Source: Candidatus Sulfotelmatobacter sp. (lineage in GTDB: Bacteria; Acidobacteriota; Terriglobia; Terriglobales; Acidobacteriaceae). From it: a DNA stretch of 64,000 nt. The notes below the pieces were generated by a model. The model ran no database searches. It was not told the DNA's origin and was given only the letters and a program-made list of their open reading frames with translations. The translations under genes were made by a program, and so were the position numbers. This document shows positions 7,666 through 29,427 of the stretch, piece by piece. Location of the stretch: NCBI GenBank assembly GCA_036844925.1, contig DAIUEW010000020.1:4716-68715 (forward strand), read 5' to 3'. Position 1 is the first letter of the stretch. Every line of letters starts with the position of its first letter.

Positions 7666-8388
7666 TTAACGGTGGGTGCAGAGGCCATCAGCGGCGAGGT
7701 GCGGCACGGCATTGAAGGTAAACAACCGTAGTTGCTCTTTTCTCAAACGCAGGATTGTGTAGGATGCGTTGTAGACTGCGCCAGCGAGGCGCATTACGCG
7801 CGCGTCGGAAATCTCCAGGGACAGGCCAGTGCAAATCGCAACCGGAGTGGCCGACGTGACGATGACAACGTTCTCGCGTGCATCAGCGATTTTCGATCGG
7901 CAGGCCGCAACGCGCTCGCGGAATTGCTGCCAGGTTTCGCCGCTGAAGGGAAAACGACCGGAAATCCACGCCTCAACCAGTTTCGTATCGCAAGGCAGCC
8001 ATTTGCGATGAATTCTCGCTGCGTGCGCGCCTTGGCTGATTCGCACCTGCTCCCGCATCTCTTCATATTCAAGGCGGAATTCAGAATTTTCAGCGCACAA
8101 ACGCGGAGCAATCTCGCGATACACGCGGCTGAGATCAAACTCATCCCAGGCAGGATCGAGGCTCACCGCGGGGAAGGAAACACCAGCATCGGCATAAGCC
8201 GCGCCGACCTGGGCGGCGGTTTGCTGCTGGCGGGACAGCGCTCCCACATAGGCCGAGGCAAATTGGATTCCCTGGGAGACGAAATGCTCGCCCAGCAGTC
8301 GCGCCTGCCGCATTCCCAATTCAGAGAGGGAATCGTAAGCGTCGCGCGTTCCCGCCTGGCCATGGCGCACAAGATACAGAGTGGTCAA
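7666..8388 (-). CDS. Histidine phosphatase (phosphoglycerate-mutase-like) family protein
   Basis: RHG catalytic motif (TTLYLVRHGQAGTR) directly after a TTG at 8388. That TTG overlaps the upstream stop as TTGA. The Arg-rich 5' extension of ORF 7666-8739 overlaps the kinase gene and is rejected. Start codon inferred. Confidence 0.75.
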   Translation of the reverse strand: MTTLYLVRHGQAGTRDAYDSLSELGMRQARLLGEHFVSQGIQFASAYVGALSRQQQTAAQVGAAYADAGVSFPAVSLDPAWDEFDLSRVYREIAPRLCAENSEFRLEYEEMREQVRISQGAHAARIHRKWLPCDTKLVEAWISGRFPFSGETWQQFRERVAACRSKIADARENVVIVTSATPVAICTGLSLEISDARVMRLAGAVYNASYTILRLRKEQLRLFTFNAVPHLAADGLCTHR

Positions 8389-9500
8389 CTTAGTTGTCCT
8401 GTGAGGGAGTCTGCGAGCTCGACTAGTCCTCGGACACGTTCGCCGAAATTTCGGAAGCGCGCGTCCTGGGTCTGGCCACGCCGGAAGCGGTAGTAGATCT
8501 GCTGCAGAATTACGGCCAGCTTGAAGACGCCGAGCACTTCGTAGTAAGGGATGTGCGAAAGGTCGCGACCGGTGCGTTCGGCATAGCGTTGTACGAATTG
8601 ATCTCGTGTGTACCATCCGGCCTGCGATGTGAGTGCGGGAACGCCTCGGGCGCGCAGTTGCGGCGCTTCTGCCCAAGCCCAGTAACACAGAGTCAAACCC
8701 AGATCGGCGAGCGGATCGCCGACCGTTGCCATCTCCCAATCAAGCACAGCTTCGATTTTGTCAACAGCGTCGATTTTGTTCACAGCTTCGATTTTGTCCA
8801 CAGCTTCGATGCGACCCGCAGAACCAACCGCAAGCATGATGTTATCCAGCTTGTAATCGTTATGCACGAGGGTGGGCGCGGGAGAAACTGGCCTGCGATC
8901 GATGAGCCATCGAATCACACTATCCATTTTAGGCATGTCATCAGTTTTAGCCCGGTGCCAACGATCAGCCCAGCCTTGCACCTGGCGTGCAAGAAATCCC
9001 TCGGGCTTGCCGAGGGCAATTAATTCGGGCCTCGAAGCGTCGATGGCATGCAGCCGGATCAGGCAATCGATAAAGGCTTCGCTCACACGCTGCGCGTAAT
9101 TCGGCACCTTAGCGAGCTGAGTTGGAACCTCATCGCGCAGTATTAGCCCATGCCTGCGTTCCATCAGAAAGAAAACGGCGCCCAGCACTGTTGGATCCTC
9201 GCACAAATGAAAAACGGCTGGAGCTTCGTGAAAATGCGGATGCACCGTCTGGAGCACGCGAAATTCGCGCGCCATGTCGTGGGCTTTGGGCGCGACGGGA
9301 CCAAGAGGGGCGCGCCTGAGCACGTACTCGCGGCCATCTCCATTCATCCGCAACAGATAGGTCAGGTTCGAGTGTCCCCCCGGAAACTGTTCGACTGTGA
9401 CACCTCGTTCCGCACCTTCGATTTTTCCAAGCAGCCAATCGGCGAGGGAAGCTAGATTCAGTTCTTCGCCGGGACGAACTGAAATGACATCGGAGTGCAC
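8385..9500 (-). CDS. Phosphotransferase (APH/choline-kinase fold) family protein, ACAD10/11 N-terminal-domain type
   Basis: 371 aa with a GTG start. FPGGHSNLTYLL, YVLRRAP, catalytic loop LVHNDYKLDNIML, metal-binding LDWEMATVGDPLADL. Contains an 18-bp x ~4 in-frame repeat. Confidence 0.85.
   Translation of the reverse strand: MHSDVISVRPGEELNLASLADWLLGKIEGAERGVTVEQFPGGHSNLTYLLRMNGDGREYVLRRAPLGPVAPKAHDMAREFRVLQTVHPHFHEAPAVFHLCEDPTVLGAVFFLMERRHGLILRDEVPTQLAKVPNYAQRVSEAFIDCLIRLHAIDASRPELIALGKPEGFLARQVQGWADRWHRAKTDDMPKMDSVIRWLIDRRPVSPAPTLVHNDYKLDNIMLAVGSAGRIEAVDKIEAVNKIDAVDKIEAVLDWEMATVGDPLADLGLTLCYWAWAEAPQLRARGVPALTSQAGWYTRDQFVQRYAERTGRDLSHIPYYEVLGVFKLAVILQQIYYRFRRGQTQDARFRNFGERVRGLVELADSLTGQLS
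8745..8816 (-). repeat. 18-bp tandem repeat x ~4 inside the kinase CDS
   Basis: Plus-strand units cacagcttcgattttgtc / aacagcgtcgattttgtt / cacagcttcgattttgtc / cacagcttcgatgcgacc. They encode (IEAVDK)-like hexapeptides between the catalytic loop and the DWE motif. Confidence 0.9.
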
Positions 9501-9538
9501 TTGAGAACCTTTCTTGCTAGAAACTCCCGCCGATCAGC

Positions 9539-10918
9539 TCAAGCGGAGTGGGCAGCGTTCCAAACGCGCACCCTTTCGAGACTGGCGAGGAACGGCTTTA
9601 AGGCTGCATAGAGAAACACCGCCGCGAGTCCGCATGCCACCGATGTCACGATGACCAGCGAGTAGCGCACGGCATCATCCCGTCCAAACGCGTACTGTGT
9701 CAATGCTCCCACGGCAGTGGGTCCGATTCCCAGCCCGATGAGATTGATGGAGAACAAATACACAGCGGAGGCCTGCCCACGCATGGTTGGGGGCATCATT
9801 TGCTGAATGGCGGCGGGAGCGATACCGAAGGGAGCTGCGGCAAGCGCGCAGCCGGCAACCAACCAGAGGGTTGCCCAAGTCGCCGACGGCGCCAGGTACA
9901 AAAGACAATTAACAGGTATCCCGACTAGTCCGATCAGTGCACCCACAAACAGGGTCGCGTTGTCGCGGCCGCGCTTGCGCAAGTAGTCAGCGATCCGGCC
10001 CGCGCTGATGATTCCGACGCAACCGAAGATCGCGACGCAGGAGCCGTAGACGACGCCGGTGCTTCCGATTGCCCAGTGGAAATTGCGCCGATAGAATTCC
10101 GGGACCCAAGCGGCACTGGCGTATGAAGAGAGCGCAAGTAGGCCGAAACCGATGTTGTGGAGCAGGAATGTCCGCCGGTTTTTGAAAATATAGGAGAAGA
10201 CTTGCCGCGCTGGAACAGGCGTCCGTCGGGCAGTTCCGGGGCGTGCGGAGGGTTCGCGTACGGTAAAGAGCAGGGGTGCCACAGCAATGCCCGGAAGGCC
10301 GATCGAAAGAAAGATGATCTGCCAGGGATGGACGGCTCCCAGCAGCGGAATGGTCCACATGGATTGGGTCGAAGCATACGCCACGACTAGTCCACCGAGC
10401 AGGTAGGCCAGGCCGGAACCGATGTAGATGCCCATCGAATAAACGCTGAGTGCAGTGGCCAGACGGTCACGAGGAAAATAATCGGTGATGAGCGAGTAGG
10501 CAGCGGGTGAAAGCGCCGCCTCTCCGACGCCCACACCCATGCGCAGCAAAAGCATTGTTTCGAACGTAAAGGCCAGCCCGCAACCGGCCGTAAACCCACT
10601 CCACAACACCAGGCCGGCCGCGATAATCAGCCTACGGCTGTATATGTCGGCCAGCCTGCCGAGAGGGATTCCGAAGAATGTATAAAACAGCGCGAAGCTG
10701 AATCCAATCAGCAAACTCATCTTAGCGTCGCCGATGTGTAAGTCGCGACGAAGCGGGCCGACCAGCAGACTGAAGATCTGGCGGGAGATGAACGAGAACG
10801 CGTACAGAAGCGTTAAGACGCCGACGACGTACCAGGCGTAGCGCAATGAATGTGCGGTAGAGTCGGCCGTGGTCTGAGCAGCGGCGGTTGTGGCTTCGGT
10901 TGGCGTTATAGAGGGCAT
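9539..10918 (-). CDS. MFS transporter (Spinster-like)
   Basis: 459 aa with about 12 hydrophobic segments. MFS loop motif GIPLGRLADIYSRR. Reads into the kinase gene (38-bp gap). Confidence 0.85.
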   Translation of the reverse strand: MPSITPTEATTAAAQTTADSTAHSLRYAWYVVGVLTLLYAFSFISRQIFSLLVGPLRRDLHIGDAKMSLLIGFSFALFYTFFGIPLGRLADIYSRRLIIAAGLVLWSGFTAGCGLAFTFETMLLLRMGVGVGEAALSPAAYSLITDYFPRDRLATALSVYSMGIYIGSGLAYLLGGLVVAYASTQSMWTIPLLGAVHPWQIIFLSIGLPGIAVAPLLFTVREPSARPGTARRTPVPARQVFSYIFKNRRTFLLHNIGFGLLALSSYASAAWVPEFYRRNFHWAIGSTGVVYGSCVAIFGCVGIISAGRIADYLRKRGRDNATLFVGALIGLVGIPVNCLLYLAPSATWATLWLVAGCALAAAPFGIAPAAIQQMMPPTMRGQASAVYLFSINLIGLGIGPTAVGALTQYAFGRDDAVRYSLVIVTSVACGLAAVFLYAALKPFLASLERVRVWNAAHSA

Positions 10919-11067
10919 CTTTTTGTAATTTCGTTTGCTTCAGATGATTGACGAGAATGATTGACGGGATCAGTAGTTCCGGCTGTCCGCGCGGTTAGAG
11001 CAATCATCCTGCAGACGGACGCGCGAAACCTACGGTAAGGCACCGCGCGTCCGGCTGTTGCTCGCTG

Positions 11068-12723
11068 TTAAAAAGTGTCCCAAAACGTTGAGCACTGGTG
11101 ACTACTGTTAAAGTCGGACTCGACCACTGGCGCCGGTGGTATCAACGATTGGAACTCGTCGGTTGACGCACTGTAGGGAGACCAGAGCGGTTCATCGGAG
11201 GAATTGGGGTCTCCCTTCTTCGCGAACTGCGTCCAGTAGCTGACCATCGCATCGGAGAGTTGGATTTGCTGGCTTGAAAGCGTTGTCGGAAGTCCGAAAA
11301 CATCGATGCCCGGGAACAGGTATTGAAGCTCAGAGCTATGATAGGCACCCAACGGAAAGGTTAACAATCCGCCAAACAAAGACTGCGCGGGGGGAGCGTT
11401 CTCATCGTTGAACTCATAGGCATAGGTCGGCACGAGTTTCGACAATGCTTGATCCACGTTGCGCGCGGGACAGCTGAAAACTCCGTCGGTACCCGATGCT
11501 CCCAGTGCCTCGCCACCGACAGGGTATGCGGCGAATGGGTACAAGGCGAGGACGGGTGGACCGATCGGACCCCACAGAGCATTGGAGTCAGCATCGTACT
11601 CTCCCGAAGTCAATATCGGATTCCCGACGAGGTCGAAGTCAAGAGCGACAAACAATCGATATTCATCGTGATTGGTGCCCGCGATTACCTGCACGTGATT
11701 GAATTCGCCGCTGGCAAAAGCCTCGCCGATTGTCTGTGTAAGAAGCGTTCCATCGACGAAAGGATACAGGGGGAATGGCTCTTTCGCGACCATCGTCGCA
11801 GCGGGAACGGCACGCAGACACGAAGCTGTCTGGCTCGTGCATCCGACACTGTCGGCAATCGCGGCACCCGACGGTACGCTTCGAGTGCCCGTCGTTTCGG
11901 CCTGCGCCAGAGTCACGACATTGGAAAAATAATCCTGGAATTCTGCATATGACCCGCTTTCCGCAATCGCTCCTCGGAACAGGCCCGACGCAAGAGGAGA
12001 GGCCAGCTGGGCGTAGACGCTTTGTCCGCCCGCCGACTCACCGAATATCGTGATTCGGTCGGGATCGCCGCCAAAGTTCGCAATGTTCCTGCGAACCCAC
12101 TTCAGCGCGAATTGCTGATCCATCAAACCATAGTTGCCATTGAGATGGCCTTCTGCATCGATCGCAGACTGGGCAAGGAATCCCAGGAAACCCAGGCGGT
12201 AATTAATGGTAACGACAATCACGTCTTTTCCTACGAGCAGCTCGGGATTGTAAGGTGTGCTGCTGCCATTAATGAGTCCTCCTCCATGAATCCAGAACAT
12301 CACCGGGAGGCCGCGCCGATCGTGATCACGCCATCCATCATGCGATTTCACCTGTGGGGTGAAGACATTCAGGAAAAGGCAATTCTCGCCGCCGATTCCT
12401 CCAGGTTGGGTGCACGCACTGCCGAATTGGGTCGCCTGGAGGAAAAATCCTGGAAAAAGGCCGTAACGCTTCGGCGGTTTCCAGCGCAGAGATCCTAGCG
12501 GCGGAGCTGCGTACGGGATGCCGAGAAATTGGTTTACGCCATCTGTCGTTGAGCCAATCACGACTCCGCTTTCAGTAAGAGCAATCGGAGGGTGAGATGA
12601 GTCGCTGGCAGATGCAGTGGGCGCCGAACTCAGCGCGACCACGCAGATCGCCAATCCAAGCAAAAGTTTATAGGTAAAGCCAAAGTGATCGAGCCGCTTG
12701 TTCGCGTTCTCTGTGTTTTTCAT
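11068..12723 (-). CDS. Secreted type-B carboxylesterase/lipase
   Basis: GIPYAAPPLGSLRW, HGGGL, nucleophile elbow FGESAGG. Signal peptide LLLGLAICVVALSSAPTASA. Start placed at the second ATG (12723), preceded by GGAGGA; the ORF extends to 12738. Confidence 0.85.
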   Translation of the reverse strand: MKNTENANKRLDHFGFTYKLLLGLAICVVALSSAPTASASDSSHPPIALTESGVVIGSTTDGVNQFLGIPYAAPPLGSLRWKPPKRYGLFPGFFLQATQFGSACTQPGGIGGENCLFLNVFTPQVKSHDGWRDHDRRGLPVMFWIHGGGLINGSSTPYNPELLVGKDVIVVTINYRLGFLGFLAQSAIDAEGHLNGNYGLMDQQFALKWVRRNIANFGGDPDRITIFGESAGGQSVYAQLASPLASGLFRGAIAESGSYAEFQDYFSNVVTLAQAETTGTRSVPSGAAIADSVGCTSQTASCLRAVPAATMVAKEPFPLYPFVDGTLLTQTIGEAFASGEFNHVQVIAGTNHDEYRLFVALDFDLVGNPILTSGEYDADSNALWGPIGPPVLALYPFAAYPVGGEALGASGTDGVFSCPARNVDQALSKLVPTYAYEFNDENAPPAQSLFGGLLTFPLGAYHSSELQYLFPGIDVFGLPTTLSSQQIQLSDAMVSYWTQFAKKGDPNSSDEPLWSPYSASTDEFQSLIPPAPVVESDFNSSHQCSTFWDTF

Positions 12724-12776
12724 CGCTGATTCCTCCATCAGTTGCTCAATGTTGTTGTGCGTTCTAAAAACCCCTC

Positions 12777-14906
12777 TTACGCCATCACGGTTTGTTCTTT
12801 ATTGAACTCGGCAAAGGTCCTGCCTTCTTCGGCGAGACGTTTCAGCAAGGGAGCAGGCTCCCAGAGTTCGCCGTGCCGTTGATGAAATTCTGAGATGCGG
12901 CGGTAGACCTTATCCAGTCCGACCGCGTCGGCATACCACATCGGACCGCCGCGATAGGCTGGGAAGCCGTAACCATTCAGATAGATGATGTCGATGTCGA
13001 CGGCGCGCAGAGCGATGCCTTCGTCGAGAATGCGCGCGCCCTCATTCACCAAGGCATAGATGCAGCGGTCGACGGTCTCCTGGGATGAGATCTTGCGTGG
13101 CGCGATGCCGGCTTCGCTCGCCCACTTCCGCACCCATTGGTCGACTTCAGGATCGGGAATCGCTCGTCGGTTCTCGTCATACTTGTACCAGCCCGCACCG
13201 GTTTTCTGGCCGTAGCGTCCAAGTTCGCAGAGACGATCCTCGGCGAAGGGCTGGCGCACGCCAGGTTTTTCGAGGTGCCGATACTCTTTGCGGATACGCC
13301 AGCCGACGTCAAGGCCCGCCAGATCGCCTGTAGACATCGGTCCCATGGCCATGCCGAAGTCGTGCAGTGCCTGGTCGACAGCTTCAACGCTTGCGCCTTC
13401 TTCAACAAGGAACTGAGCTTCGCGGCGGTAGGGGCCGAACATGCGATTTCCGACAAAGCCGCGGCAGTTGCCAACGGCCACACCGACTTTGCCGAGTTTT
13501 TTCGAGAGCTGCATGCAGGTCGCGATCACGTCTTTGCCGGTTGCCTTGCCGCGTACGATTTCGAGCAGGCGCATGATATTCGCGGGACTGAAAAAATGAG
13601 TGCCGACTACGGCTTCAGGCCGCGAAGTGGCCGAGGCTATTTCATCGATGTCGAGGGTTGATGTGTTACTCGCCAAGATCGCCCCTTTCTTGCATGCTCG
13701 ATCCAACTGGCCGAAGACTTCTTTCTTGAGCACCATGCCCTCGAATACGGCCTCGACCACCATATCCACTTTGCCGAAATCGTCGTAGCTGAGGGTTGGG
13801 CGAATCAGCTCCAGGCGTTCATCCACGAACTGTTGGGTGAAGCGTCCGCGCTTAACCGAACTGAGGTAATTCTTCTGGATGGTGGCTAGCCCACGATCAA
13901 GTGTCGGCTGGTCGGCGTCCTTGAGCAACACGAGCATGCCGGCGTTGGCGAACACCATGGCGATTCCGCCTCCCATGGTTCCAGCACCGACTATCGCCAC
14001 GGAGCTTACCGGGACGATGGGAGTTTCTTTTGGTATGTCCGGAATCTTGGCGACCTCGCGCTCACCGAAGAAAACATGGATGAGCGCCTTGGATTGATCC
14101 GAGAAAAGGCAATCGTTGAATAGCTTTTGTTCAACCTGGCAGCCTTCATCAAAGGAAAGCTTGGTAGCGGCTTCCACCGCGTCGATGGCCGCCAGCGGCG
14201 CGATCATGCCGCGCTGTTTGGTGCGAGCCTTCTCGCGTGTGGCAGCGAAGACGGGTGCATTCTGCTCGAGAGTGCCCAGTTTAACGTTGCGCTCACGAGT
14301 CTTGAGGAGGGGGCTTCCGGCGATTCCGCGCGAGAAAGTTATGGCGCTCGTCAGTAGATCGCCCTCGATCAAACGGTCCACAAGCCCCAGTCGCAGGGCT
14401 TCCTGAGCTGTGATTGGGTTGCCTTCCGAACACATCTCGACGGCTTTTGCAACGCCCACGAGCCGAGGTAAACGCTGCGTACCGCCTGCGCCCGGAATAA
14501 TTCCGAGCTTCACTTCGGGCTGACCCATTTGCGAATTCGGAGCAGCCACCCGATAGTGGCCAGCCATGGCAAGCTCAAGGCCGCCGCCGAAGGCGCTGCC
14601 ATGAATGGCGACGACAACGGGTTTGCGCAGATTTTCTATCTGAAGCAAAAGCGGAAGGAGGCCTGCGCCGCGCTGGGTTTTGCCAGACGTGATCTTGCCG
14701 AATTCTTTTATGTCGGCGCCGGCGACGAATGTGCGGCCGCCACCAATCAGCACCACCGCCTTGATGCCGTCATCTTTGGCCACCTCAAAGGCCCTGGCAA
14801 TCCCCTGCGCGACGGCGGGGCTCAAGGCGTTCACGGGAGGATTATTGATGGTGATGATTGCGACATCTTTATTCTTGTCCCGCGTGAGTTGAACCAGATC
14901 GTCCAT
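12777..14906 (-). CDS. Bifunctional enoyl-CoA hydratase / 3-hydroxyacyl-CoA dehydrogenase (FadB/FadJ-like)
   Basis: 709 aa. N-terminal crotonase ([21 protein letters not shown]). Central NAD-binding [13 protein letters not shown]-terminal 3HCDH domain. Confidence 0.9.
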
Positions 14907-18411: not shown

Positions 18412-18501
18412 TGAGTGCTCCGTAGAGTGAAACAAAAGTGATCGCGGCCGCTGACGGGTAGTCTCACGACCAACGTTAGAACCAACCAGCCTTCCCGGCC
18501 G

Positions 18502-21987: not shown

Positions 21988-22313
21988 ACGATTCTCCTTA
22001 CGGATGTCTGAAGACTTCGCCAATTGCAGTGCGAGTCAGTTCCGAAGCCCGCTAAGTACTCACCCCAAGAGCCGTCAATGCTGATCTGTCGCCCGTTTCC
22101 TTCAGGATCAAGAATTCAAATGACGTCCAGCAAAACCACAGATTGTGAGAGTGAGTATCACATAAGAGTAACTAACGTCAAGAACGAAAATGTCAATTAT
22201 CCAACTGAGCCAAAGGGGAACCTAGGTTTTTGCGCGGCCGTCGCCCATCGGGACACTGCGAGAAGAAAAACTTAGTATCGAGTAGATTTGGATCCCGATT
22301 GCGGCGCGGCCGC

Positions 22314-23348
22314 TCAGGAGGGGGTCAGGACGATCCGGCCTGAGACTTGGCCCTTACGCAACTGATCGAGCACCTCGTTGGCTTGGGCGAGCGGGCGAGC
22401 AACAACCTGGCAGCGGACCTTCCCGGCAGCAGCCATATTGAGTACTTCCCGCAAGTCTTGCCGGGTGCCAACGGTAGATGCGCGGATCCGAATTTCACCT
22501 GCAGCCATAAGAATCGGCGGGAAGCAGATGTTCTCGGCGGGCAAGCCCACGACGAGAAGAGTGCCTGTAGGCCGCAGGCAGGAAAACGCCGCGTCGTAAG
22601 CCGCCTTTGCGGCAGAAGTTACGATCGCCACATGGACCCTACCTGTGCGGCGCAATGCTTTGACTGCATCAGTCGTAGCAGCATTGAGAGTGCTGGCTGC
22701 GCCAAAAGATCTGGCCAGTTCAAGCTTTTCGTCGGAGACGTCGATCGCGGTCACGTCGGCGCCCAAAGCCCGTCCGAGCTGCACGGCGAGGTGTCCGAGG
22801 CCGCCAATCCCGAAAACCGCAAGTCGTTGTCCCGCGAGTCGTTGTCCAGGGAGAATTCCGGCGCCTTTCAGCGCCCGATAGACCGTGAGTCCGGCACAAA
22901 AAAGCGGGGCTGCTTCAAGGGCAGAAAGACCATTGGGAATTTTCAGCGCGTGAGTTGCTGGCGCCTTTACAAATTCCGCATAGCCGCCGTCGACGGTGAC
23001 TCCTGTGATTTTTTGCCGGCTGCACAGGTTTTCGTTTTCTTCGCGGCAGAATTCGCACTCACCGCAGCTCCAGTGAATCCATGGCACGCCGACGCGGTCG
23101 CCGATTTGTAAATCGTCTACCGCTCCGCCTTTTTCCACGACATGACCGGCAATCTCGTGGCCGAGAATGAGCGGTCTCTTTACGATCCCCGCGAGCTGTT
23201 TCCAATCCCCATCAGCCACGTGCACATCGGAGTGGCAAGCACCACAGGCTTCTACCTGGATCAAAACTTCATCCGCTGCGGGACGAGGCCGTTCGACGTC
23301 CTCGATCGATAGTGGCTTCTTGAAATCGTGCAGGATCGCGGCTTTCAT
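22314..23348 (-). CDS. Zinc-dependent alcohol dehydrogenase
   Basis: 344 aa. GACHSDVH, ILGHEIAGHV, CGECEFC structural Zn site, Rossmann FGIGGLGH. Contains a 15-bp duplication (GQRLA x2) at 22818-22847. Confidence 0.9.
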   Translation of the reverse strand: MKAAILHDFKKPLSIEDVERPRPAADEVLIQVEACGACHSDVHVADGDWKQLAGIVKRPLILGHEIAGHVVEKGGAVDDLQIGDRVGVPWIHWSCGECEFCREENENLCSRQKITGVTVDGGYAEFVKAPATHALKIPNGLSALEAAPLFCAGLTVYRALKGAGILPGQRLAGQRLAVFGIGGLGHLAVQLGRALGADVTAIDVSDEKLELARSFGAASTLNAATTDAVKALRRTGRVHVAIVTSAAKAAYDAAFSCLRPTGTLLVVGLPAENICFPPILMAAGEIRIRASTVGTRQDLREVLNMAAAGKVRCQVVARPLAQANEVLDQLRKGQVSGRIVLTPS

Positions 23349-23422: not shown

Positions 23423-24106
23423 TCACGGCTTCACACCGCGCAGGAAAAACTCGATGGCGCTGTCCACACGCTCGGTCAATTTATGAGGTCCGGTGAGGTC
23501 GACGGTCCATTGGCGAACCACGGTGTGGTAGAGGGCTTCCATGAATTCGGCGAGGTGCACGAGAGGGAACGCATTCGTGATTTCACCCCGCTTCTGGCCC
23601 TGTGCCAGGATTTCCTGGAGCAAGCTGACGGCAACTCCCTCGACTGCGCGCACTTCCGGAGAGCGCACCGGATCCATCGCTCCGGAGAGCACGACCGCTT
23701 TCCATAACGGCCGGTCGGCTTCCACTTCGAGTGCCAGCGCGTGATAAAGCCGCTGCAAGCGCTCGGCGGTGTCCGCTTTGGTGGAGAGTTCAGATTTGAG
23801 GTGCTCCGCGATGCATTCGAAGCCGAGCTTGCCCACGTCGCGCAGAACTGCGTCCTTGCTGGGGAAATAGCGGAAGAAAGTTGGCTGGCTGATTTCTAGA
23901 ATTTTGACGATGTCGTCGACACGGGTTCTCTCATAGCCCTGTTTACGGAACAGTCGGATGGCCGTGTCGATGATTTGCTGACGGAGTCGCGCCTTCTTGC
24001 GTTCGCGAAGCCCAGGGAACTCCTGAATCTGCACCGGCGCATTGCGCTTCATCAATTTCCGGCGCTTCCGACCTCTTTGCGGTACGGCGACTTCCATACG
24101 AGCCAT
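23423..24106 (-). CDS. TetR/AcrR-family transcriptional regulator
   Basis: HTH TRVDDIVKILEISQPTFFRYFPSKDAVL. Start placed at MARMEV (24106); the ORF extends to 24220. Confidence 0.85.
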   Translation of the reverse strand: MARMEVAVPQRGRKRRKLMKRNAPVQIQEFPGLRERKKARLRQQIIDTAIRLFRKQGYERTRVDDIVKILEISQPTFFRYFPSKDAVLRDVGKLGFECIAEHLKSELSTKADTAERLQRLYHALALEVEADRPLWKAVVLSGAMDPVRSPEVRAVEGVAVSLLQEILAQGQKRGEITNAFPLVHLAEFMEALYHTVVRQWTVDLTGPHKLTERVDSAIEFFLRGVKP

Positions 24107-24252: not shown

Positions 24253-24283
24253 TTGACGTTAGCTACTAATATCTGATATAGAC
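24253..24283 (+). promoter_or_regulatory. Candidate promoter/operator upstream of the long acyl-CoA dehydrogenase
   Basis: TTGACGTTAGCTACTAATATCTGATATAGAC. A -35-like TTGACG, GATATA 16 nt downstream, and the palindrome ATATC-T-GATAT (24269-24279). The same ~30-nt architecture recurs at 22181-22151(-) and 4435-4406(-). Confidence 0.35.
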
Positions 24284-24428
24284 TAACACAATTTGCGTCG
24301 CGATTCTTGTGTAAGGAAGAAAAACTGAATCGGCTGGTGTGCAGGGGCTGATTTTCGACTATTCGCACGTCGGGATGACGCTCGCAGATTGGCCCGCGCC
24401 ACCTCGCAATATTCGCAGCCCGGAGAAG

Positions 24429-26204
24429 ATGATGACAACTGCAACGGTAACTCCTCTTCAAATCAAAGGTGGTGCATTCCTAATCGAAGATCGTGCGCCC
24501 CACGAAATTTTTACGGCCGAAGATCTGAATGAAGAGCACCTTGCGATTGCGCGTACGGTGGACGACTTCTGGGCGAATGATGTGGAGCCTCATCTCGAGG
24601 CGATCCGTCAGCAGAAGCCGGGGGTTGCTCTGGAGGTGCTACGCAAATCAGCTGAACTCGGGCTGGCTGCGATACCCATTCCCGAGAGATTCGGCGGGAT
24701 GGAAATGGACCTGCCGTCTGTAATGATAGCAGGCGAGCATCTGGCAAAGGATACCTCTTACGCGTCTTGGCACTCGGGCCATACCGGGATCGGCACGCTG
24801 CCGGTTCTTTTCTTTGGCAACGAAGAACAGAAGCGAAAATATCTTCCCAGACTGGCGAAAGTTGAGCTGCTGGCCGCGTACGCACTGACCGAACCGCTGG
24901 CCGGCTCAGATGCTCTTGCTGTGCGCACGCGTGCGGACCTCACTCCGGATGGCAAATTTTACGTGCTGAACGGACAGAAGATGTGGATCACCAACGGCGG
25001 TGCGGCCGACCTGTTCACGGTGTTCGCAAAAGTAGGAGGCGAGAAGTTCACGGCGTTCCTGGTGGAGCGGAGCTTTCCTGGCGTAACCAGCGGGGCTGAA
25101 GAACACAAGATGGGGATCAAGGGCAGCTCGACTACGGCCGTGTTCCTGGACAATGTGCGGGTTCCCGTGGAAAACGTGCTCGGCGAAATTGGCCGGGGGC
25201 ACATCATTGCGTTCAACATCCTGAATATCGGTCGCCTGAAACTTGGTCCCGGAGCTGTGGGTGGAGCGAAGAATGTGCTTGCGATCTGCCTGAAATATGC
25301 CAAAGAGCGCAAAGCATTTGGTTCGGCTATCGCGGAGTTCGGCGCGATCCGGCACAAGCTGGCCGAGATGGCCATTCGCACCTACGCGGTGGAATCGATG
25401 GTGTGGCGCGTGGTGGGACTCATCGAGAGCCAACTGGCGCAATCCGCTCATGAGCAGCACGCTGATTCTCAGAGCGAACTCAAAGCTGTCGAGGAGTACG
25501 CCGCAGAATGCTCGATGATCAAGGTCTATGCCTCGGAGATGCTGGATTACGTTGTCGATGAAGGCGTACAGATTCACGGCGGCTACGGCTACCATCAGGA
25601 TTACGCGGTGGAACGGGCTTACCGTGACTCACGAATCAATCGCATCTTTGAAGGTACCAATGAAATCAACCGTCTTTTGATAACAGGAATGCTGCTCAAA
25701 CGTGCCGCCCGTGGGCAATTGGCGCTTATCCCCGCAGTGCAGGCCGTAGTTAAAGGGATTGGCAGAGTGGCATCCGAATCTCTGAGCACGGATGAAGAGT
25801 CCCGGCTTGTGCACAACGCGAAAAATATCGCGCTGTTCACGATCGGGATTGCTTATCAAAAATATGGAACTGAGTTGGAAAAACAGCAAGAGATTCTGAT
25901 GAACATCTCCGACATCGTCATGGAGGTTTTCGCCGTGGAGTCGAGCCTGCTTCGGAGTCGCAAGCTCGCGGCATCGGGTAAAGGAACGAATGCGGCCGAC
26001 ATGTGCGCCGTGTTTCTGCGCGAAGCCATGGATCGAATCGAAATCTCGTCTCGAAATGTGATCGGCGCGTGTTCTAATGGCAATGCCTTACGGGAGAATA
26101 TGGCTGCGCTCCGGGGCTTTGCCAACTACGATCCAATCGATGCGATCGCACTTCGGCGGAACATTGCCAGCCGTCTTTTACGCGCAGGGAGTTACACGAT
26201 CTGA
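24429..26204 (+). CDS. Long (about 590-aa) acyl-CoA dehydrogenase family protein
   Basis: ACAD N/M/C domains (ALTEPLAGSDA, WITNGG, GGYGY) plus a C-terminal helical extension. Start placed at MMTTATV (24429); the ORF extends to 24339. Confidence 0.85.
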   Translation: MMTTATVTPLQIKGGAFLIEDRAPHEIFTAEDLNEEHLAIARTVDDFWANDVEPHLEAIRQQKPGVALEVLRKSAELGLAAIPIPERFGGMEMDLPSVMIAGEHLAKDTSYASWHSGHTGIGTLPVLFFGNEEQKRKYLPRLAKVELLAAYALTEPLAGSDALAVRTRADLTPDGKFYVLNGQKMWITNGGAADLFTVFAKVGGEKFTAFLVERSFPGVTSGAEEHKMGIKGSSTTAVFLDNVRVPVENVLGEIGRGHIIAFNILNIGRLKLGPGAVGGAKNVLAICLKYAKERKAFGSAIAEFGAIRHKLAEMAIRTYAVESMVWRVVGLIESQLAQSAHEQHADSQSELKAVEEYAAECSMIKVYASEMLDYVVDEGVQIHGGYGYHQDYAVERAYRDSRINRIFEGTNEINRLLITGMLLKRAARGQLALIPAVQAVVKGIGRVASESLSTDEESRLVHNAKNIALFTIGIAYQKYGTELEKQQEILMNISDIVMEVFAVESSLLRSRKLAASGKGTNAADMCAVFLREAMDRIEISSRNVIGACSNGNALRENMAALRGFANYDPIDAIALRRNIASRLLRAGSYTI

Positions 26205-26275
26205 CAGTGCAGGTCGGTGTGTGTGCGTTAATGTGTGAATCACCACCGAAAGGCAACCATAGAGCCGAGATCGGA

Positions 26276-27301
26276 ATGACTGCTTCGAATCGCGTAAACC
26301 GCCAGTGGCGGCTTAAATCGCGGCCCTTCGGCCTGATCAAACCTGACAACTTCGAGTTCGTGTCCGAACCCATGCCAGAGCCAGGGGATGGTCAGTTCCT
26401 GATTCGCAACGTGCATCTCTCGCTCGATCCAGCGATGCGGGGGTGGATGGTGGACCGTCCGTCGTACGTTCCGTGTGTGAAGATTGGCGAAGTCATGCGC
26501 GGATTAGCTGTTGGAACAGTGGAGAAATCGAATCATCCAAAATTTGCCGCCGGCGACAGAGTGCAGGGGATGTTCGGATGGCAGGAGTATCTGCTCTCGA
26601 GTGGCGAAGGTGTGACGAAGTTGCCGGAAAGTGGACTTCCGTTTAACGCATACCTTGGGCTGTTTGGATTAGCGGGGTTAACCGCGTACGCTGGACTCTT
26701 GGAAGTGGGACAGCCCAAGAGCGGCGAAACCCTACTCATCTCGGGCGCCGCGGGCTCGGTTGGCTCGCTCGTCGGCCAGATGGGCAAGATCAAGGGACTT
26801 CGCGTAGTCGGCATCGCTGGAACTGACGAGAAGTGCAATTGGCTGGTGAAGGAGCTCGGCTTCGACACGGCCGCGAACTACAAAGAGGCCGACTACAAGA
26901 AACAGTTGCAGGATTCGTCTCCGAATGGAGTGGATATTTATTTCGAAAATGTCGGCGGAGAAATTCTGGAAACTGCCCTCTATCTGATGAATACTTTCGG
27001 ACGTGTCGTGGTTTGCGGGATGATCTCGATGTACAACGCGACGACACCCGTCCGAGGGCCGTCCAACCTGGCATTGGTGATCAGCAAGCGGCTAAAGATC
27101 CAGGGCTTTCTCGCGCTTGATTATTATTCGAAAGTGAATGAGATGGTTAGCAACTTTACCCAGTGGTATAACTCAGGCCAGCTCAAGTATCGAGTGGATA
27201 TCGTCCAGGGCCTTGAGACTGCGCCGGTGGCCATCAACAAATTGTTTGACGGTTCGAATAATGGCAAACTAATCGTGCAAGTATCGGATCCTCCCGAGTA
27301 A
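26276..27301 (+). CDS. NADP-dependent MDR oxidoreductase (alkenal/enone reductase, PTGR1/YncB/CurA-like)
   Basis: NRQWRLKSRP N-terminus, ISGAAGSVGSLVGQMGK cofactor motif, C-terminal NNGKLIVQV. The ORF extends to 26207. Confidence 0.85.
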   Translation: MTASNRVNRQWRLKSRPFGLIKPDNFEFVSEPMPEPGDGQFLIRNVHLSLDPAMRGWMVDRPSYVPCVKIGEVMRGLAVGTVEKSNHPKFAAGDRVQGMFGWQEYLLSSGEGVTKLPESGLPFNAYLGLFGLAGLTAYAGLLEVGQPKSGETLLISGAAGSVGSLVGQMGKIKGLRVVGIAGTDEKCNWLVKELGFDTAANYKEADYKKQLQDSSPNGVDIYFENVGGEILETALYLMNTFGRVVVCGMISMYNATTPVRGPSNLALVISKRLKIQGFLALDYYSKVNEMVSNFTQWYNSGQLKYRVDIVQGLETAPVAINKLFDGSNNGKLIVQVSDPPE

Positions 27302-27420
27302 CGTTGTTCCCTTTTGCTTGATCTCTGAAGTAGCTGCATGCCGTACAACTCCTGGCCGGGCAACTTGGGCCGGGCTGCATGCGTAAAGGCTGCGGGAACC
27401 CTGGTGCTTGGGGTTTGTTA

Positions 27421-27495
27421 TCTCAGCGGCTAAAGCCGATTTCAGAACGAAGCACTTATCGCAGCGGTGAACCGCTGCGCCACCCAAAAAGCAAA
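27421..27495 (+). repeat. REP-like element, family A subtype 2
   Basis: tctcagcggctaaagccg...cgcagcgg-tgaa-ccgctgcg-ccacccaaaaagc. Same organisation as 63318-63412 and 28460-28535. Confidence 0.8.
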
Positions 27496-27563
27496 CGCAA
27501 ACCGAGTTTTCCCGCAAGGCGTAAACGCTACAATCGTTTTTTCTGCGACAATCTCCTGAAGCC

Positions 27564-28400
27564 ATGCCGAGCTCGCAAGCCGCATCGATACCTGACTTTC
27601 TTTATGGCACTGCCTGGAAGGAGGAGCGGACGCCTGCGCTCGTGGAATTGGCGCTGCGCACGGAATTTCGGGGAATCGACACAGCTAACCAGCGGCGGCA
27701 TTACTTCGAAGCCGGCGTGGGGCAGGGGCTTGCAGCTGCCTATCGTGCTGGGGTGGTGAGGCGCGCCGATCTTTTTCTGCAGACAAAATTTACCTACCGG
27801 CCGGGGCAGGACCATCGGCTGCCCTACGATCCCACGGCGAAGCTCGCAGTGCAAGTGGCGCAGTCGATGGCGAGTTCACTGGAACATCTTGGGACGGATT
27901 ACGTCGACAGCTATGTGCTGCATGGTCCCGCATCAAACTACGGTTGGAGCGATACCGACGCCGAGGTTTGGGGGGCAATGACGAAGGAGCGCGACGCCGG
28001 GCGCACGCGTCAGCTGGGAGTTAGCAATGTTTCGATGCAACATCTGGAGCAGATGACGGCTGTCTCCGCTGAAGTTCCTGCGTTTGTGCAAAACCGCTGC
28101 TATGCACGGATGGGATGGGATCGCGAGGTGCGATCATTTTGCAAACGGCGCGAGATCACTTACCAGGGATTTTCGCTGCTCACGGCGAATATGGACGTGC
28201 TGCATGATTCCTTAGTTGGCGGGTTGGCGTCGCAGGCGAACATCACTCCGGCGCAGGTTGTGTTCGCCTTCGCGCGCAGGGTTGGGATGCTGCCACTGAC
28301 GGGTACCTCCAACGCTGAGCATATGAGGCAGGATTTGGCCAGTACTCATGTTGAGCTTTCAGCGGAGGTGGCGCGTGCTATTGAGGCTGTAGCCGGCTGA
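27564..28400 (+). CDS. Aldo/keto reductase
   Basis: 278 aa. FLYGTAWKEERT, IDTANQ, DSYVLHGP, LLTAN... typical AKR layout. Confidence 0.85.
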   Translation: MPSSQAASIPDFLYGTAWKEERTPALVELALRTEFRGIDTANQRRHYFEAGVGQGLAAAYRAGVVRRADLFLQTKFTYRPGQDHRLPYDPTAKLAVQVAQSMASSLEHLGTDYVDSYVLHGPASNYGWSDTDAEVWGAMTKERDAGRTRQLGVSNVSMQHLEQMTAVSAEVPAFVQNRCYARMGWDREVRSFCKRREITYQGFSLLTANMDVLHDSLVGGLASQANITPAQVVFAFARRVGMLPLTGTSNAEHMRQDLASTHVELSAEVARAIEAVAG

Positions 28401-28459
28401 CTTGATTTTCGCGCAACATATAATTGTGGACTGCAAGGACTTCACGAGTTGAAAGGTTT

Positions 28460-28535
28460 CCTCAGCGGCTAAATCCGAGGATGGAACAGCGTGTTGCCGC
28501 TGCGCTTAGAAATGCTGCCCACCCGGGACCGATTT
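28460..28535 (+). repeat. REP-like element, family A subtype 2 (diverged)
   Basis: cctcagcggctaaatccgagg...cagcgtgttgccgctgcgcttagaaatgctgcccaccc. Confidence 0.7.
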
Positions 28536-28569
28536 ACAACATCAATTCTTACTAGGAAGCCTGAAGGCG

Positions 28570-29427
28570 TTGGCATTGGAAAACCATCTGACTATCAATC
28601 CCATTTTGCGCTTTGCCGGGCTCGCGCTCTTTGCCGCGCTGCTGGTTGTGTGCGCTCTTGCTGTGCCCTGCTCTGCGCAGGACAACTACGAGATTCAGGT
28701 GTACGAGGCCGAGACGGTTGCTCCTCGTTCGACCATGGTCGAAATCCACTCCAACTTCACGGTCGAGGGCAGCAAGACCGTGCAAGACGGGATGCTGCCA
28801 ACGAACCACGCCGAGCATGAGACGCTTGAAATCACCCAAGGAATCAACGACTGGGCCGAGGTTGGCTTCTATCTGTTCACCAGCATTCAGCCGGGCGATG
28901 GCTGGCAATGGGTGGGCGACCATATTCGGCCGCGGGTGCGCGTTCCGGAGCGGTGGCATTGGCCGGTGGGCTTGAGCTTGTCGACTGAGATCGGTTATCA
29001 GCGTCCTGCATTCTCGCCCGATACATGGACTTGGGAAATTCGTCCTATCATCGATAAGAAGATTGGGCCGTGGTATCTGGCGTTCAATCCGGCGCTCGAC
29101 CGCTCGTGGCATGGACCGAGCGTGAACCAGGGAGTGACGTTCTCGCCGAACGCGAAGTTCAGTTACGATTTCACCAGGAAGATTGCGGGCGGGCTGGAAT
29201 ATTACGCGTCCTACGGTTCACTTACGGGCTTTGATGCGCTGCGCGATCAGCAGCAACAATTCTTTCCGGCGATCGATGTCGATTTTGGCCCGCAGTGGGA
29301 GTTCAACTTCGGCGTAGGCGTGGGGGCCACGCGCTCCACCGATCATTTGATTGTGAAGTGCATTATCGGGCGGCGTTTTTCGTGGCCGCACGGAGGTGGG
29401 GCAAAACTCAGGGATCTGCAGCCATGA
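28570..29427 (+). CDS. Putative outer-membrane beta-barrel protein (function unknown)
   Basis: TTG start. Signal peptide LALFAALLVVCALAVPCSAQ. Alternating aromatic/Gly-rich strands (WEFNFGVGVGAT, FSYDF). Resembles MetA-pathway-type hydrophobic-compound porins, but this assignment is only by pattern. Confidence 0.5.
   Translation: MALENHLTINPILRFAGLALFAALLVVCALAVPCSAQDNYEIQVYEAETVAPRSTMVEIHSNFTVEGSKTVQDGMLPTNHAEHETLEITQGINDWAEVGFYLFTSIQPGDGWQWVGDHIRPRVRVPERWHWPVGLSLSTEIGYQRPAFSPDTWTWEIRPIIDKKIGPWYLAFNPALDRSWHGPSVNQGVTFSPNAKFSYDFTRKIAGGLEYYASYGSLTGFDALRDQQQQFFPAIDVDFGPQWEFNFGVGVGATRSTDHLIVKCIIGRRFSWPHGGGAKLRDLQP

Follow-up and report, generated by a model that had tools for sequence, protein, structure and literature searches.

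The 64-kb window considered here (64,000 nucleotides of contig DAIUEW010000020.1, positions 4,716 to 68,715, in assembly GCA_036844925.1 of Candidatus Sulfotelmatobacter sp.) contains a gene island in which a TonB-dependent outer-membrane transporter is embedded among genes for fatty-acid activation and beta-oxidation, a TetR-family regulator and a kinase/dehydrogenase pair of the ACAD10/11 type. All coordinates given below are positions within this window. We lean towards the view that the island, at about 4.4–27.3 kb, forms a single regulon in which a FadR-like TetR repressor would act on three promoters, the pairing of repressor and operator being predicted from sequence, and that this regulon may serve the uptake and degradation of oxygenated long-chain fatty acids.

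Gene Content and Boundaries of the Island

Two lineage-specific genes of the minus-strand chain (9539–12738) and the genes at the right-hand edge are listed further below; the other genes of the island are as follows:

4460–5332, plus strand: enoyl-CoA hydratase/isomerase, ECH (Pfam ECH_1, 7.5e-54)
5536–6753, plus strand: ACAD10/11/LvaC-type acyl-CoA dehydrogenase (ACAD), 405 aa, with predicted phosphate elimination from 4-phosphoacyl-CoA
6811–7272, plus strand: MaoC-like (R)-specific enoyl-CoA hydratase (Pfam MaoC_dehydratas, 8.6e-22)
7666–8388, minus strand: histidine phosphatase of PGAM branch 1 (Pfam His_Phos_1, 6.5e-19; RHG motif)
8385–9500, minus strand: APH kinase of the ACAD10/11-N/LvaA type, a predicted 4-hydroxyacyl-CoA kinase (Pfam, 8.6e-41)
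12777–14906, minus strand: FadB/FadJ-like bifunctional enoyl-CoA hydratase and 3-hydroxyacyl-CoA dehydrogenase (Pfam ECH_1 and 3HCDH_N/C)
15032–16639, minus strand: acyl-CoA synthetase (AMP-ligase) of the NF004837 long-chain-fatty-acid--CoA ligase subfamily (571 bits, cut-off 476)
16670–17569, minus strand: short-chain dehydrogenase/reductase (SDR) family oxidoreductase (Pfam adh_short, 1.3e-56), occupying the place of LvaD in the lva operon
17563–18435, minus strand: cytoplasmic alpha/beta hydrolase, PcaD-like (Abhydrolase_1, 1.6e-35; no signal peptide)
18502–21987, minus strand: Oar-class TonB-dependent transporter ("the receptor") with signal peptide, N-terminal CarboxypepD_reg domain, TonB box and plug, and 22-strand barrel
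22314–23348, minus strand: Zn-dependent alcohol dehydrogenase (Zn-ADH), AdhP/Ahr-like (Pfam ADH_N, 1.8e-31; ADH_zinc_N, 3.9e-27)
23423–24106, minus strand: TetR-family repressor, FadR-like (Pfam TetR_N, 2.1e-14)
24339–26204, plus strand: long ACAD of the Bacillus-FadE/VLCAD (very-long-chain acyl-CoA dehydrogenase) type (NF058590, 771 bits, cut-off 600)
26207–27301, plus strand: NADPH enone/alkenal reductase of the CurA/PTGR1 family (Pfam ADH_N_2, 7.5e-41)

An earlier note on this DNA, made from the sequence alone, had described positions 7666–29427 as a receptor-centred locus for ester-linked hydroxy or oxo fatty acids. Searches with Pfam and NCBIfam place all eleven genes on the minus strand and the first three on the plus strand in the families that it had named, and its near-continuous minus-strand array is borne out: between the TetR and the phosphatase gene, ten of eleven junctions overlap or span at most 149 nt, the sole larger gap, of 326 nt, being the promoter region ahead of the receptor gene. 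Its bounds, on the other hand, have to be redrawn. On the left, the locus begins near 4397 and takes in the ECH, ACAD10/11-type and MaoC genes. On the right, an open reading frame (ORF) at 28570–29427 drops out; since this ORF is missing from the closest relative locus, the only one in which the preceding aldo-keto reductase (AKR) gene is seen, the edge falls between 28400 and 28570.

For comparison, 80 loci centred on orthologues of the receptor (59–83% identity) were taken from a scan with one genome per species, and the window proteins were compared with them by tblastn. The flanks of these loci were set at 10 kb and some clusters are clipped, so that gene counts over the 80 loci are lower bounds; 59 of the loci have at least 9 kb on either side of the receptor and are referred to as the full-flank subset. 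The closest relative locus, with a 96% identical receptor, lies outside the 80 and is designated L082. Most titles of the related loci name Terriglobales, Candidatus Sulfotelmatobacter, Acidiferrales or unclassified Acidobacteriota, and four carry the names Eremiobacterota or Dormibacterota, possibly through mis-binning.

The Receptor

The N-terminus of the receptor (MKSLASVFVCLLLATSLARAQG) resembles a signal peptide (signal peptides were called by eye throughout), and is followed by a CarboxypepD_reg domain that beats its curated cut-off (PF13620, 1.5e-19) and by an outer-membrane barrel domain (PF25183, OMP_b-brl_4, 3.5e-104). Neither the Plug nor the TonB_dep_Rec family of Pfam was matched, even at E <= 1, and a sequence search against solved structures gave no match. 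A profile of 45 diverse homologues, compared by hhalign with FepA, FhuA, BtuB and CirA of E. coli, aligned receptor residues 110–330 with FepA 26–221 (probability 95.6%, E 1.1e-8), a stretch that covers TonB box, plug and the initial strands of the barrel. Within it, the receptor segment ATVIEVTSE is aligned to the FepA region holding DTIVVTA, which we take to be the TonB box of FepA.

Structure prediction depended on the depth of the alignment. From 31 orthologues, all at least 79% identical, AlphaFold2 gave no usable model (pLDDT 34), and the same shallow profile yielded no alignment to FhuA. The 45-sequence diverse alignment led to a model with a pLDDT of 84.8 and a pTM of 0.84, in which 22 long strands follow residue 250. 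When this model was compared with the PDB by Foldseek, all 50 of the matches listed were TonB-dependent transporters (one of them a deposited Fiu model), headed by YddB (E 1.6e-28) and then FusA, with a SusC structure 31st among those listed. According to profile and model, the receptor is a genuine Oar-class TonB-dependent transporter, for which the direction of transport, import, and the substrate are predicted; its architecture is that described for the Oar subclass (PMC6434023).

The family to which the receptor belongs is very large, with 75,381 representatives (at 50% identity) found at E <= 0.001. A second Oar-class receptor, 23% identical to the first, is encoded at 141–3644, about 800 nt upstream of the ECH gene; in the receptor- and ACAD11-centred loci examined it has no counterpart, its own orthologues not having been searched for.

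Conserved Synteny

The earlier note had proposed a functional link between receptor and lipid genes, and had named synteny in relatives as a check. In 55 of the 59 full-flank loci, at least three lipid genes lie beside the receptor orthologue. Over the 80 loci, the most frequent partners are FadB (61), the acyl-CoA synthetase (60), the SDR (54), the APH kinase (52), TetR (47) and Zn-ADH (46), followed by MaoC (42), the ACAD11-type ACAD (35), the alpha/beta hydrolase and FadE (33 each) and the CurA-type reductase (20).

Three arrangements recur. Type A loci keep the gene order of the window. Type C is a more distant version of type A, which lacks the PcaD-like hydrolase and often has an exported hydrolase of 460–486 aa directly after the receptor gene. 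Type B, comprising 20 loci, is rearranged: SDR, synthetase, FadB, phosphatase and kinase genes are followed by MaoC on the opposite strand, then by FadE, CurA, hydrolase, receptor and ECH genes, with ACAD11 again on the opposite strand. Almost always, the receptor gene has genes of the cluster directly beside it: Zn-ADH (43 loci) or the alpha/beta hydrolase (19) upstream and SDR (17), the exported hydrolase (15), the alpha/beta hydrolase (13), ECH (8) or ACAD11 (7) downstream. Metagenome loci centred on ACAD11 show the same order in reverse, from ECH-ACAD11-MaoC through phosphatase/kinase, FadB, synthetase and SDR on to the receptor. Within a single assembly, CAWBSS01, the complete cluster is present twice (L003 and L067). 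The two copies have diverged, their receptors sharing 80% and 62% identity with the window receptor, which suggests duplication and specialisation of the entire unit. The link between receptor and lipid genes is thus upheld, both by a synteny that has come through rearrangement and cluster duplication and by the shared operator-bearing promoter.

A Shared Promoter/Operator Element

Three sites in the window carry the promoter/operator pattern:

4397–4437, plus strand: operator-like site of the ECH-ACAD11-MaoC genes, containing TGATAGTGACTAACG and overlapping a GTGACT-17-TATAAT promoter-like site, 23 nt upstream of ECH
22139–22181, minus strand: promoter/operator of the receptor operon, TTGACG, 16-nt spacer, GATACT, with TGATACTCACTCTCA over the -10 box
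24253–24295, plus strand: promoter/operator in the divergent region between TetR and FadE, with the same 43-nt pattern as the receptor promoter

The 43-nt element common to the receptor gap and the TetR-FadE region reads TTGACGTTAGyTACT..TAT.TGATA...ACT..CACAAT.TG, a pattern for which 0 matches are expected by chance. It combines a -35 box (TTGACG), a 16-nt spacer and a -10 box (GATAYW) with a palindrome, TGATA-N5-T(A/C)(T/A)CA, lying over the -10 box. Among the related loci, the element is found 48–406 nt upstream of the receptor in 42 of the 80 and upstream of FadE in 13, and occasionally ahead of TetR, SDR or ACAD11; its palindrome is perfect (TGATA-N5-TATCA) in distant genomes, e.g., TGATACCGACTATCA. 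Most positions of the motif hold about 1.5–1.7 bits of information, and adjacent ones mostly fall below 0.5 bits, so that the conservation represents a phylogenetic footprint and not residual similarity.

Only sites upstream of the receptor in other genomes went into a 41-nt weight matrix, with which both strands of the window (128 kb) were scanned. The three best sites were those of the receptor (65.4 bits, 22141–22181), FadE/TetR (43.1 bits, 24253–24293) and ECH (12.9 bits); the next, unrelated site scored -11.6 bits, against a background of -83 +/- 15. The bare TGATA-N5-TATCA palindrome is not enriched in the window (12 matches, 10 expected), and only the longer conserved element is therefore informative. 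General scans of the window for terminators and promoters gave counts at chance level, and of these only the receptor and ECH promoter sites were used. The element goes with the regulator gene: among loci with enough upstream sequence, 38 have both motif and TetR, 9 TetR only, 1 the motif only and 25 neither. One predicted type of operator-bearing promoter serves the receptor operon, FadE/TetR and ECH-ACAD11-MaoC.

These data bear on the possibility that receptor and lipid genes have no functional link, the receptor persisting in place by shared ancestry and being possibly regulated by metals. The sheer size of its family, the second, unrelated paralogue at 141–3644 and an operator that is weakly Fur-box-like could be taken in this sense. 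The association, however, survives rearrangement and duplication, the same promoter/operator stands ahead of FadE and of ECH-ACAD11, the operator tracks the TetR gene and not the receptor alone, and the paralogue is without a counterpart in the related loci examined, all of which makes a chance neighbourhood extremely improbable. A Fur box was likewise considered for the operator itself and rejected, given the partial match and the presence of the element at the FadE and ECH promoters in step with the TetR gene. With respect to control by metals, the outcome that the earlier note would have taken as speaking against a lipid locus, the receptor instead appears from the promoter comparison to be co-regulated with lipid genes.

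A Predicted 4-Hydroxyacyl-CoA Module

The kinase, phosphatase and ACAD11-type genes, together with those of the SDR and the synthetase, make up a module that would convert 4-hydroxyacyl-CoA; in the island it is combined with long-chain-type FadE, FadB, ECH, MaoC and an enone reductase. Among solved structures, the APH kinase is closest to 9o56 (8.5e-101), followed by 3dxp (3.4e-41) and the kinase domain of mouse ACAD11 (1.7e-36). We take 9o56 to be the ACAD10-type kinase of Caldalkalibacillus thermarum treated in PMC13596139, a paper that does not name the entry. The motifs HNDYKLDN and LDWE are kept, corresponding to the HxDxK...N motif with its catalytic Asp/Asn and to the DWE metal motif as defined for kinases of the ACAD10/11 class (PMC13596139). 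The TTG start codon of the phosphatase gene overlaps the stop codon of the kinase gene (TTGA), i.e., the two are arranged for translational coupling; the phosphatase has no informative relative among solved structures. Two interchangeable cassettes occupy this slot in the related loci, APH-phosphatase as in the window and phosphatase-APH (e.g., L003, 19050–20891), in the latter of which identity to the window proteins is about 44% for the kinase and about 30% for the phosphatase. Both variants include a phosphatase gene.

The ACAD at 5536–6753 scores 474 bits against human and mouse ACAD11 (2wbi, 8v3u; 3e-141 for the mouse enzyme), compared with 157 bits for the next ACAD class. An alignment to mouse ACAD11 shows that R626, H634 and R637 all have their counterparts in it, as does D753, the catalytic residue (Asp, not Glu); Rashan et al. 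found these four to be specific to ACAD10/11 and LvaC and to take part in the handling of 4-phosphoacyl-CoA (PMC12440821). The kinase/phosphatase and ACAD11 operons converge, with their ends about 400 nt apart, and this arrangement is kept in receptor- and in ACAD-centred loci; MaoC adjoins the kinase and ACAD11 genes in 42 of the 80 loci. ECH lies upstream of the ACAD11-type gene in the metagenome loci and directly after the receptor in type B loci. A small LvaB-like partner was not seen among the ORFs between or beside the kinase and ACAD genes, an inspection that included no direct search with the LvaB sequence. The gap between the convergent MaoC and phosphatase ends contains, at 7506–7630, three copies of a 43-nt unit (81% matches).

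An ACAD10/11-type kinase/dehydrogenase pair is present, with one half to the left of 7666 and with an activity that is predicted from conserved residues. The earlier note had postulated such a pair with the long ACAD at 24339–26204 as the dehydrogenase; the pair exists and its signatures are intact, but the partner is the ACAD at 5536–6753. The long ACAD was ruled out as the kinase partner: it passes the Bacillus FadE model and is nearest to VLCAD and ACAD9, and is therefore an ordinary dehydrogenase of long-chain beta-oxidation. The arithmetic by which a hydroxyl on C10 moves to C8, C6 and C4 in three rounds of beta-oxidation was correct as well, for it follows from established chemistry that hydroxyls on even-numbered carbons, such as the 10-OH of cutin monomers or that of 12-hydroxystearate, end at C4. 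Hydroxyls on odd-numbered carbons finish at C3, and there the (R)-isomer can be dealt with by MaoC and ECH.

In one related locus (L047), the kinase, phosphatase and ACAD11 genes are absent and their slot is taken by a homologue of 4-hydroxybutyryl-CoA dehydratase/vinylacetyl-CoA isomerase (20355–21887; 1u8v, 2.6e-98, compared with about 1e-30 for HpaB hydroxylases). The dehydratase achieves the same net conversion, from 4-hydroxyacyl-CoA to enoyl-CoA, by other chemistry. This looks like a non-orthologous replacement, a single yet telling case.

The resemblance of the kinase to 9o56 also raises a different reading, namely salvage of ether lipids and glycerolipids, in which receptor and esterases would take up and deacylate exogenous glycerolipids. 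Several prokaryotic homologues, the C. thermarum enzyme included, phosphorylate chimyl alcohol (PMC13596139), and the phosphatase always stands alongside the kinase. We regard this reading as very improbable, given that the ACAD keeps the R/H/R cluster and catalytic Asp specific for elimination from 4-phosphoacyl-CoA, that the module is embedded among CoA-dependent beta-oxidation genes, and that no enzymes of glycerol or ether-lipid metabolism were seen in any locus.

Beta-Oxidation, Regulator and Redox Genes

Among the remaining conserved enzymes, a bias towards long acyl chains is shown by the subfamily of the acyl-CoA synthetase and by the VLCAD-like FadE, the nearest structures to the latter being 2z1q (Thermus) and 3owa (Bacillus), at about 1e-172, plus VLCAD and ACAD9; its true start is probably the ATG near 24429, orthologues having about 590 aa. 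The FadB-like enzyme reaches 2.5e-155 with the NCBIfam FadJ model, under the equivalog cut-off. Among the closest relatives that share the esterase-MFS insertion described below, a thiolase gene is found between FadB and esterase (L013, 19080–20288), at a point where the window has a 38-nt gap (12739–12776). The Zn-ADH matches AdhP at 2.9e-86, under the cut-off. For the enone reductase, 399 bits were obtained with the CurA model NF058644 (cut-off 440) and 7.4e-66 with TIGR02825 (leukotriene B4 12-hydroxydehydrogenase/15-oxo-prostaglandin 13-reductase); its family acts on 15-oxo-prostaglandins and alkenals. The TetR protein matches best, over its full length, the structures 3ang and 3anp (9.4e-17), which are presumably Thermus FadR bound to lauroyl-CoA; Bacillus FadR (5gp9, 3whb) was also matched, while the score against the NCBIfam model of Bacillus FadR (2.7e-11) is far under cut-off.

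A short-chain pathway of the lva type, for levulinate, 4-hydroxyvalerate or gamma-lactones, was weighed against this background. There, the receptor would scavenge small acids and the PcaD-like hydrolase would open lactones. The set of kinase, phosphatase, ACAD, SDR and synthetase does match lvaA, lvaC, lvaD and lvaE together with the variant known from Pseudomonas citronellolis, the alpha/beta hydrolase is nearest to an enol-lactonase, and one locus has the 4-hydroxybutyryl-CoA dehydratase homologue. A synthetase that passes the cut-off for long-chain ligases and a VLCAD-like FadE fit such substrates poorly, however; C5 compounds need no full-length FadB and FadE, and porins are the normal route of small acids across the outer membrane. 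We therefore consider it quite improbable.

Several of the enzyme genes have in-frame tandem repeats (units of 15, 18 and 6 nt) at six sites in five genes:

4697–4772, in ECH
8745–8810, in the APH kinase
17014–17081, in the SDR
17500–17545, in the SDR
17574–17605, in the alpha/beta hydrolase
22817–22847, in Zn-ADH

The repeats are absent from orthologues of 63–79% identity and have fewer copies in the relative with the 96% identical receptor, and are thus recent coding minisatellites of variable copy number.

Hydrolases and Lineage-Specific Genes

Four genes of the region first described are not part of the conserved set:

9539–10918, minus strand: major facilitator superfamily (MFS) transporter, anion:cation symporter-like (Pfam MFS_1, 1e-41)
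11068–12738, minus strand: exported type-B carboxylesterase with a hydrophobic N-terminus ending ASA|SD (Pfam COesterase, 1.6e-104)
27564–28400, plus strand: AKR (Pfam Aldo_ket_red, 4.9e-24), peripheral
28570–29427, plus strand: ORF with a signal peptide and no family match

The earlier note had given the secreted carboxylesterase a central place in its argument for an ester substrate. The esterase gene, however, is present in 3 and the MFS gene in 2 of the 80 loci (as a paired insertion in L007 and L013), besides L082, where both occur; the two are a lineage-specific insertion between FadB and kinase, and the best solved match of the esterase is a fumonisin B1 esterase (1.1e-61). Nor can the AKR be retained as a component, with no occurrence in the 80 loci. 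The ORF at 28570–29427, formerly taken for a beta-barrel protein, was considered as a lipid channel of the locus and discarded, for want of a family match, because it is missing from the corresponding position in L082, and on account of its synteny elsewhere: it belongs to a neighbouring gene block, and its relatives in other genomes (L166–L168, 7001–7849) lie between a pair of ExbD genes and DUF7544-GidA-SelB, away from any lipid genes. Its family, of exported proteins of 270–300 aa, is very abundant, and well conserved, under the name "hypothetical" in Sulfotelmatobacter-like genomes, with 77–91% identity among the 120 clusters listed.

An ester or lactone substrate nevertheless stays plausible, because other lineages have a different exported serine hydrolase after the receptor. 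This protein of 460–486 aa, with a GHSLGG motif and a signal peptide (e.g., L063, 13633–15093), is encoded in 18 loci, in 15 of them directly downstream of the receptor and in 3 at another place in the locus; searches with the 486-aa form gave no solved relative and generic names only, and the protein may act as the extracytoplasmic esterase in these clusters. The cytoplasmic alpha/beta hydrolase, which matches the PcaD model (TIGR02427, 3-oxoadipate enol-lactonase) at 4.2e-45, under the cut-off, adjoins the receptor in 32 loci, downstream in 13 and upstream in 19. In total, 47 loci have a hydrolase gene immediately beside that of the receptor, and the hydrolases are of three unrelated types, two of them exported; this recurrence points to ester or lactone substrates. 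None of the locus hydrolases has an informative characterised relative, and none of 21 locus proteins matches the cutinase family of Pfam.

Exported hydrolases beside an Oar-class receptor also call to mind outward transport, with the receptor secreting the neighbouring hydrolase(s) as Myxococcus Oar does with PopC, and fatty acids entering by another way. Domain architecture is the same, an exported hydrolase lies downstream in the loci just mentioned, and the window encodes an exported carboxylesterase. In most loci, those of types A and B, by contrast, the cluster is devoid of exported proteins and the hydrolase beside the receptor has no signal peptide, and import is the rule in the superfamily according to a 2024 review of TonB-transporter substrates; secretion of this kind is highly improbable here.

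More weight has to be given to a general fad regulon, in which the receptor would replace FadL for ordinary long-chain fatty acids and the 4-hydroxyacyl-CoA module and its companions would do housekeeping in lipid peroxidation or membrane turnover. FadE, FadB and the synthetase, with the thiolase of relatives, form a complete ordinary beta-oxidation set, the regulator is FadR-like, and the exported esterases are not conserved. It is a serious but unlikely explanation, for the kinase, phosphatase, ACAD11, MaoC and SDR genes are conserved as well as the core fad genes, L047 replaces the kinase module with another enzyme that converts 4-hydroxyacyl-CoA, a hydrolase flanks the receptor with the frequency given above, and the two diverged copies in one genome suggest specialisation.

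Proposed Mechanism and Substrate

The reading we favour, with modest confidence, is that of a regulon under TetR control through which oxygenated long-chain fatty acids would be taken up by the receptor and beta-oxidised, with a bypass for 4-hydroxyacyl-CoA. The receptor would import exogenous long-chain hydroxy or oxo fatty acids, either free or as esters or lactones, the bonds of which may be opened by lineage-variable hydrolases—the exported type-B carboxylesterase in the window, the exported 460–486-aa serine hydrolase in distant relatives, or, in many loci, the cytoplasmic PcaD-like enzyme. The acyl-CoA synthetase would then trap the acid as a CoA ester, so that receptor and synthetase would parallel FadL and FadD of E. 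coli. Beta-oxidation is expected to proceed through FadE, FadB and ECH, with a thiolase encoded elsewhere in the genome. Once a hydroxyl has reached C4, the APH kinase would phosphorylate the 4-hydroxyacyl-CoA and the ACAD11/LvaC-type enzyme would eliminate the phosphate, giving 2-enoyl-CoA, while the histidine phosphatase may limit the accumulation of phospho-intermediates. The SDR could interconvert oxo and hydroxy groups in the manner of LvaD, MaoC could handle (R)-3-hydroxyacyl-CoA, and enone reductase and Zn-ADH are likely candidates for processing unsaturated carbonyl and alcohol groups.

Several observations weigh against this scheme. The substrate class is predicted from enzyme families of broad specificity, and every one of the 80 related loci comes from an uncultured, metagenome-assembled genome from peat or soil. 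Control by TetR and operator is not universal, since type B loci have neither a TetR gene nor an equivalent operator, and the outer pentamers of the operator are Fur-box-like, agreeing with the Fur consensus at 12–13 of 19 positions at best. No thiolase gene lies in the 64-kb window, though relatives carry one after FadB. The kinase of the window has an in-frame repeat (18 nt x 3.7) that lengthens the protein by 19 aa, between catalytic loop and DWE motif, and could impair the enzyme. The specificity predicted for the kinase is made less certain by its closest characterised homologue, from C. thermarum, which also phosphorylates 1-O-alkylglycerols in vitro (PMC13596139). Finally, the sole characterised Oar-class transporter exports a protein and imports no nutrient (PMC6434023).

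With regard to the natural source of the substrate, cutin and suberin, the candidates put forward in the earlier note, are one doubtful possibility among others. A tentative idea, which we consider rather unlikely as it stands, is that the receptor is an energised importer dedicated to those monomers or oligo-esters of hydroxy fatty acids that plant polyesters (cutin, suberin) or comparable hydroxyalkanoate esters release. If it were true, however, the island would be the first described "lipid utilisation locus" and the first long-chain bacterial pathway of the ACAD10/11 type, and it would be widespread in Terriglobia of peat and forest soil, with relevance for the turnover of aliphatic soil carbon.

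Novelty and Significance

The known substrates of TonB-dependent transporters comprise metals, cobalamin, glycans, a few aromatic and steroid compounds, and proteins. A lipid substrate, if confirmed, would widen this range. The statement that TonB-dependent uptake of lipids is poorly documented agrees with the literature searched, in which no TonB-dependent transporter for fatty or hydroxy fatty acids, for cutin or suberin, or for oxylipins was found, and no description of this Sulfotelmatobacter cluster either; the 2024 review makes no mention of fatty acids. What appears to be new is the conserved and apparently co-regulated combination in uncultured Terriglobia, the fad regulon, the lva/ACAD10-11 pathway and the Oar-class transporter each being known in themselves. 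Its conservation in dozens of related species suggests an import route for oxygenated lipids of a kind that has seldom been documented.

To our knowledge, an ACAD10/11-type bypass has so far been characterised only in mammals and in the levulinate catabolism of Pseudomonas. The island would place it within a long-chain beta-oxidation regulon of abundant, uncultured soil Acidobacteriota. The hydroxy acids of cutin and suberin are commonly seen as a persistent pool of soil carbon, and a conserved system for their uptake and degradation would provide a genetic marker of the consumers of that pool. Despite the uncultured state of the hosts, operator, repressor, kinase/ACAD pair and receptor are amenable to testing by heterologous expression.

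Comparison with Known Systems

Bacteroidota polysaccharide utilisation loci (PULs) of the SusC/SusD type share the underlying logic of a receptor combined with degradative enzymes and a regulator, with exported hydrolases in some lineages. In contrast to these, the island is without a SusD-like lipoprotein (no match to the SusD family among the neighbours in the window or in L082), without glycoside hydrolases and without a SusC-type receptor, and its predicted substrate is a lipid and not a glycan. Hence, the earlier designation "PUL-like" can stand for the analogy of logic only, as there is no SusD partner and the receptor is Oar-like. Oar of Myxococcus xanthus, compared by architecture, has the same signal peptide, CarboxypepD_reg domain, TonB box and plug, and 22-strand barrel; while Oar exports the protease PopC in development, the receptor of the island lies in a catabolic regulon and is a predicted importer. 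A TonB-dependent receptor inside a catabolic cluster for a poorly soluble carbon source is likewise found in the estrogen (edc) cluster of Novosphingobium tardaugens, where it is reportedly co-regulated. The edc cluster differs from the island in substrate class, enzymes, receptor subclass and phylum.

As in the E. coli FadL-FadD system, an outer-membrane entry protein and a synthetase are predicted to be under the control that governs the beta-oxidation genes; FadL, however, is a 14-strand diffusion channel and the protein of the island an energised 22-strand TonB-dependent transporter. The TetR-type FadR regulons of Bacillus and Thermus likewise have a FadR-like TetR protein beside fad genes and palindromic operators over promoters. 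Here, the operator, of the TGATA-N5-TATCA type, is unlike the FadR site of B. halodurans, and, in difference to both FadR and FadL-FadD systems, enzymes for oxygenated acyl chains are added.

In mammalian ACAD10 and ACAD11, kinase (1.7e-36) and ACAD (3e-141) are homologous to those of the island, with catalytic residues conserved, and the HAD domain of ACAD10 is paralleled by a phosphatase-fold partner, which here has the PGAM fold. The mammalian domains are fused, whereas in the island they are encoded by separate genes within a bacterial operon and regulon, with a function that is predicted.

The closest parallel in gene content is the lva operon of Pseudomonas (lvaABCDE of P. putida), in which an APH-type kinase, an ACAD of the ACAD10/11 class, an SDR and an acyl-CoA synthetase are likewise united in one catabolic cluster; the Lva proteins were compared at the family level only. 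The predicted chemistry is alike, leading from 4-oxo- or 4-hydroxyacyl-CoA via 4-phosphoacyl-CoA to enoyl- or 3-hydroxyacyl-CoA. In the levulinate-induced cluster of P. citronellolis LA18T, the LvaA homologue is followed by a histidine phosphatase and then by the homologues of LvaC and LvaD (PMC6692424), so that the phosphatase adjoins the kinase as it does here. Differing from lva, the island shows no LvaB-like ORF beside the kinase and ACAD genes and is without the LvaF/G inner-membrane carrier, a TetR protein replaces the sigma-54 regulator LvaR, and kinase and ACAD genes stand in convergent operons; in addition, it has the VLCAD-like FadE, FadB, MaoC, ECH, the enone reductase and, above all, the TonB-dependent transporter.

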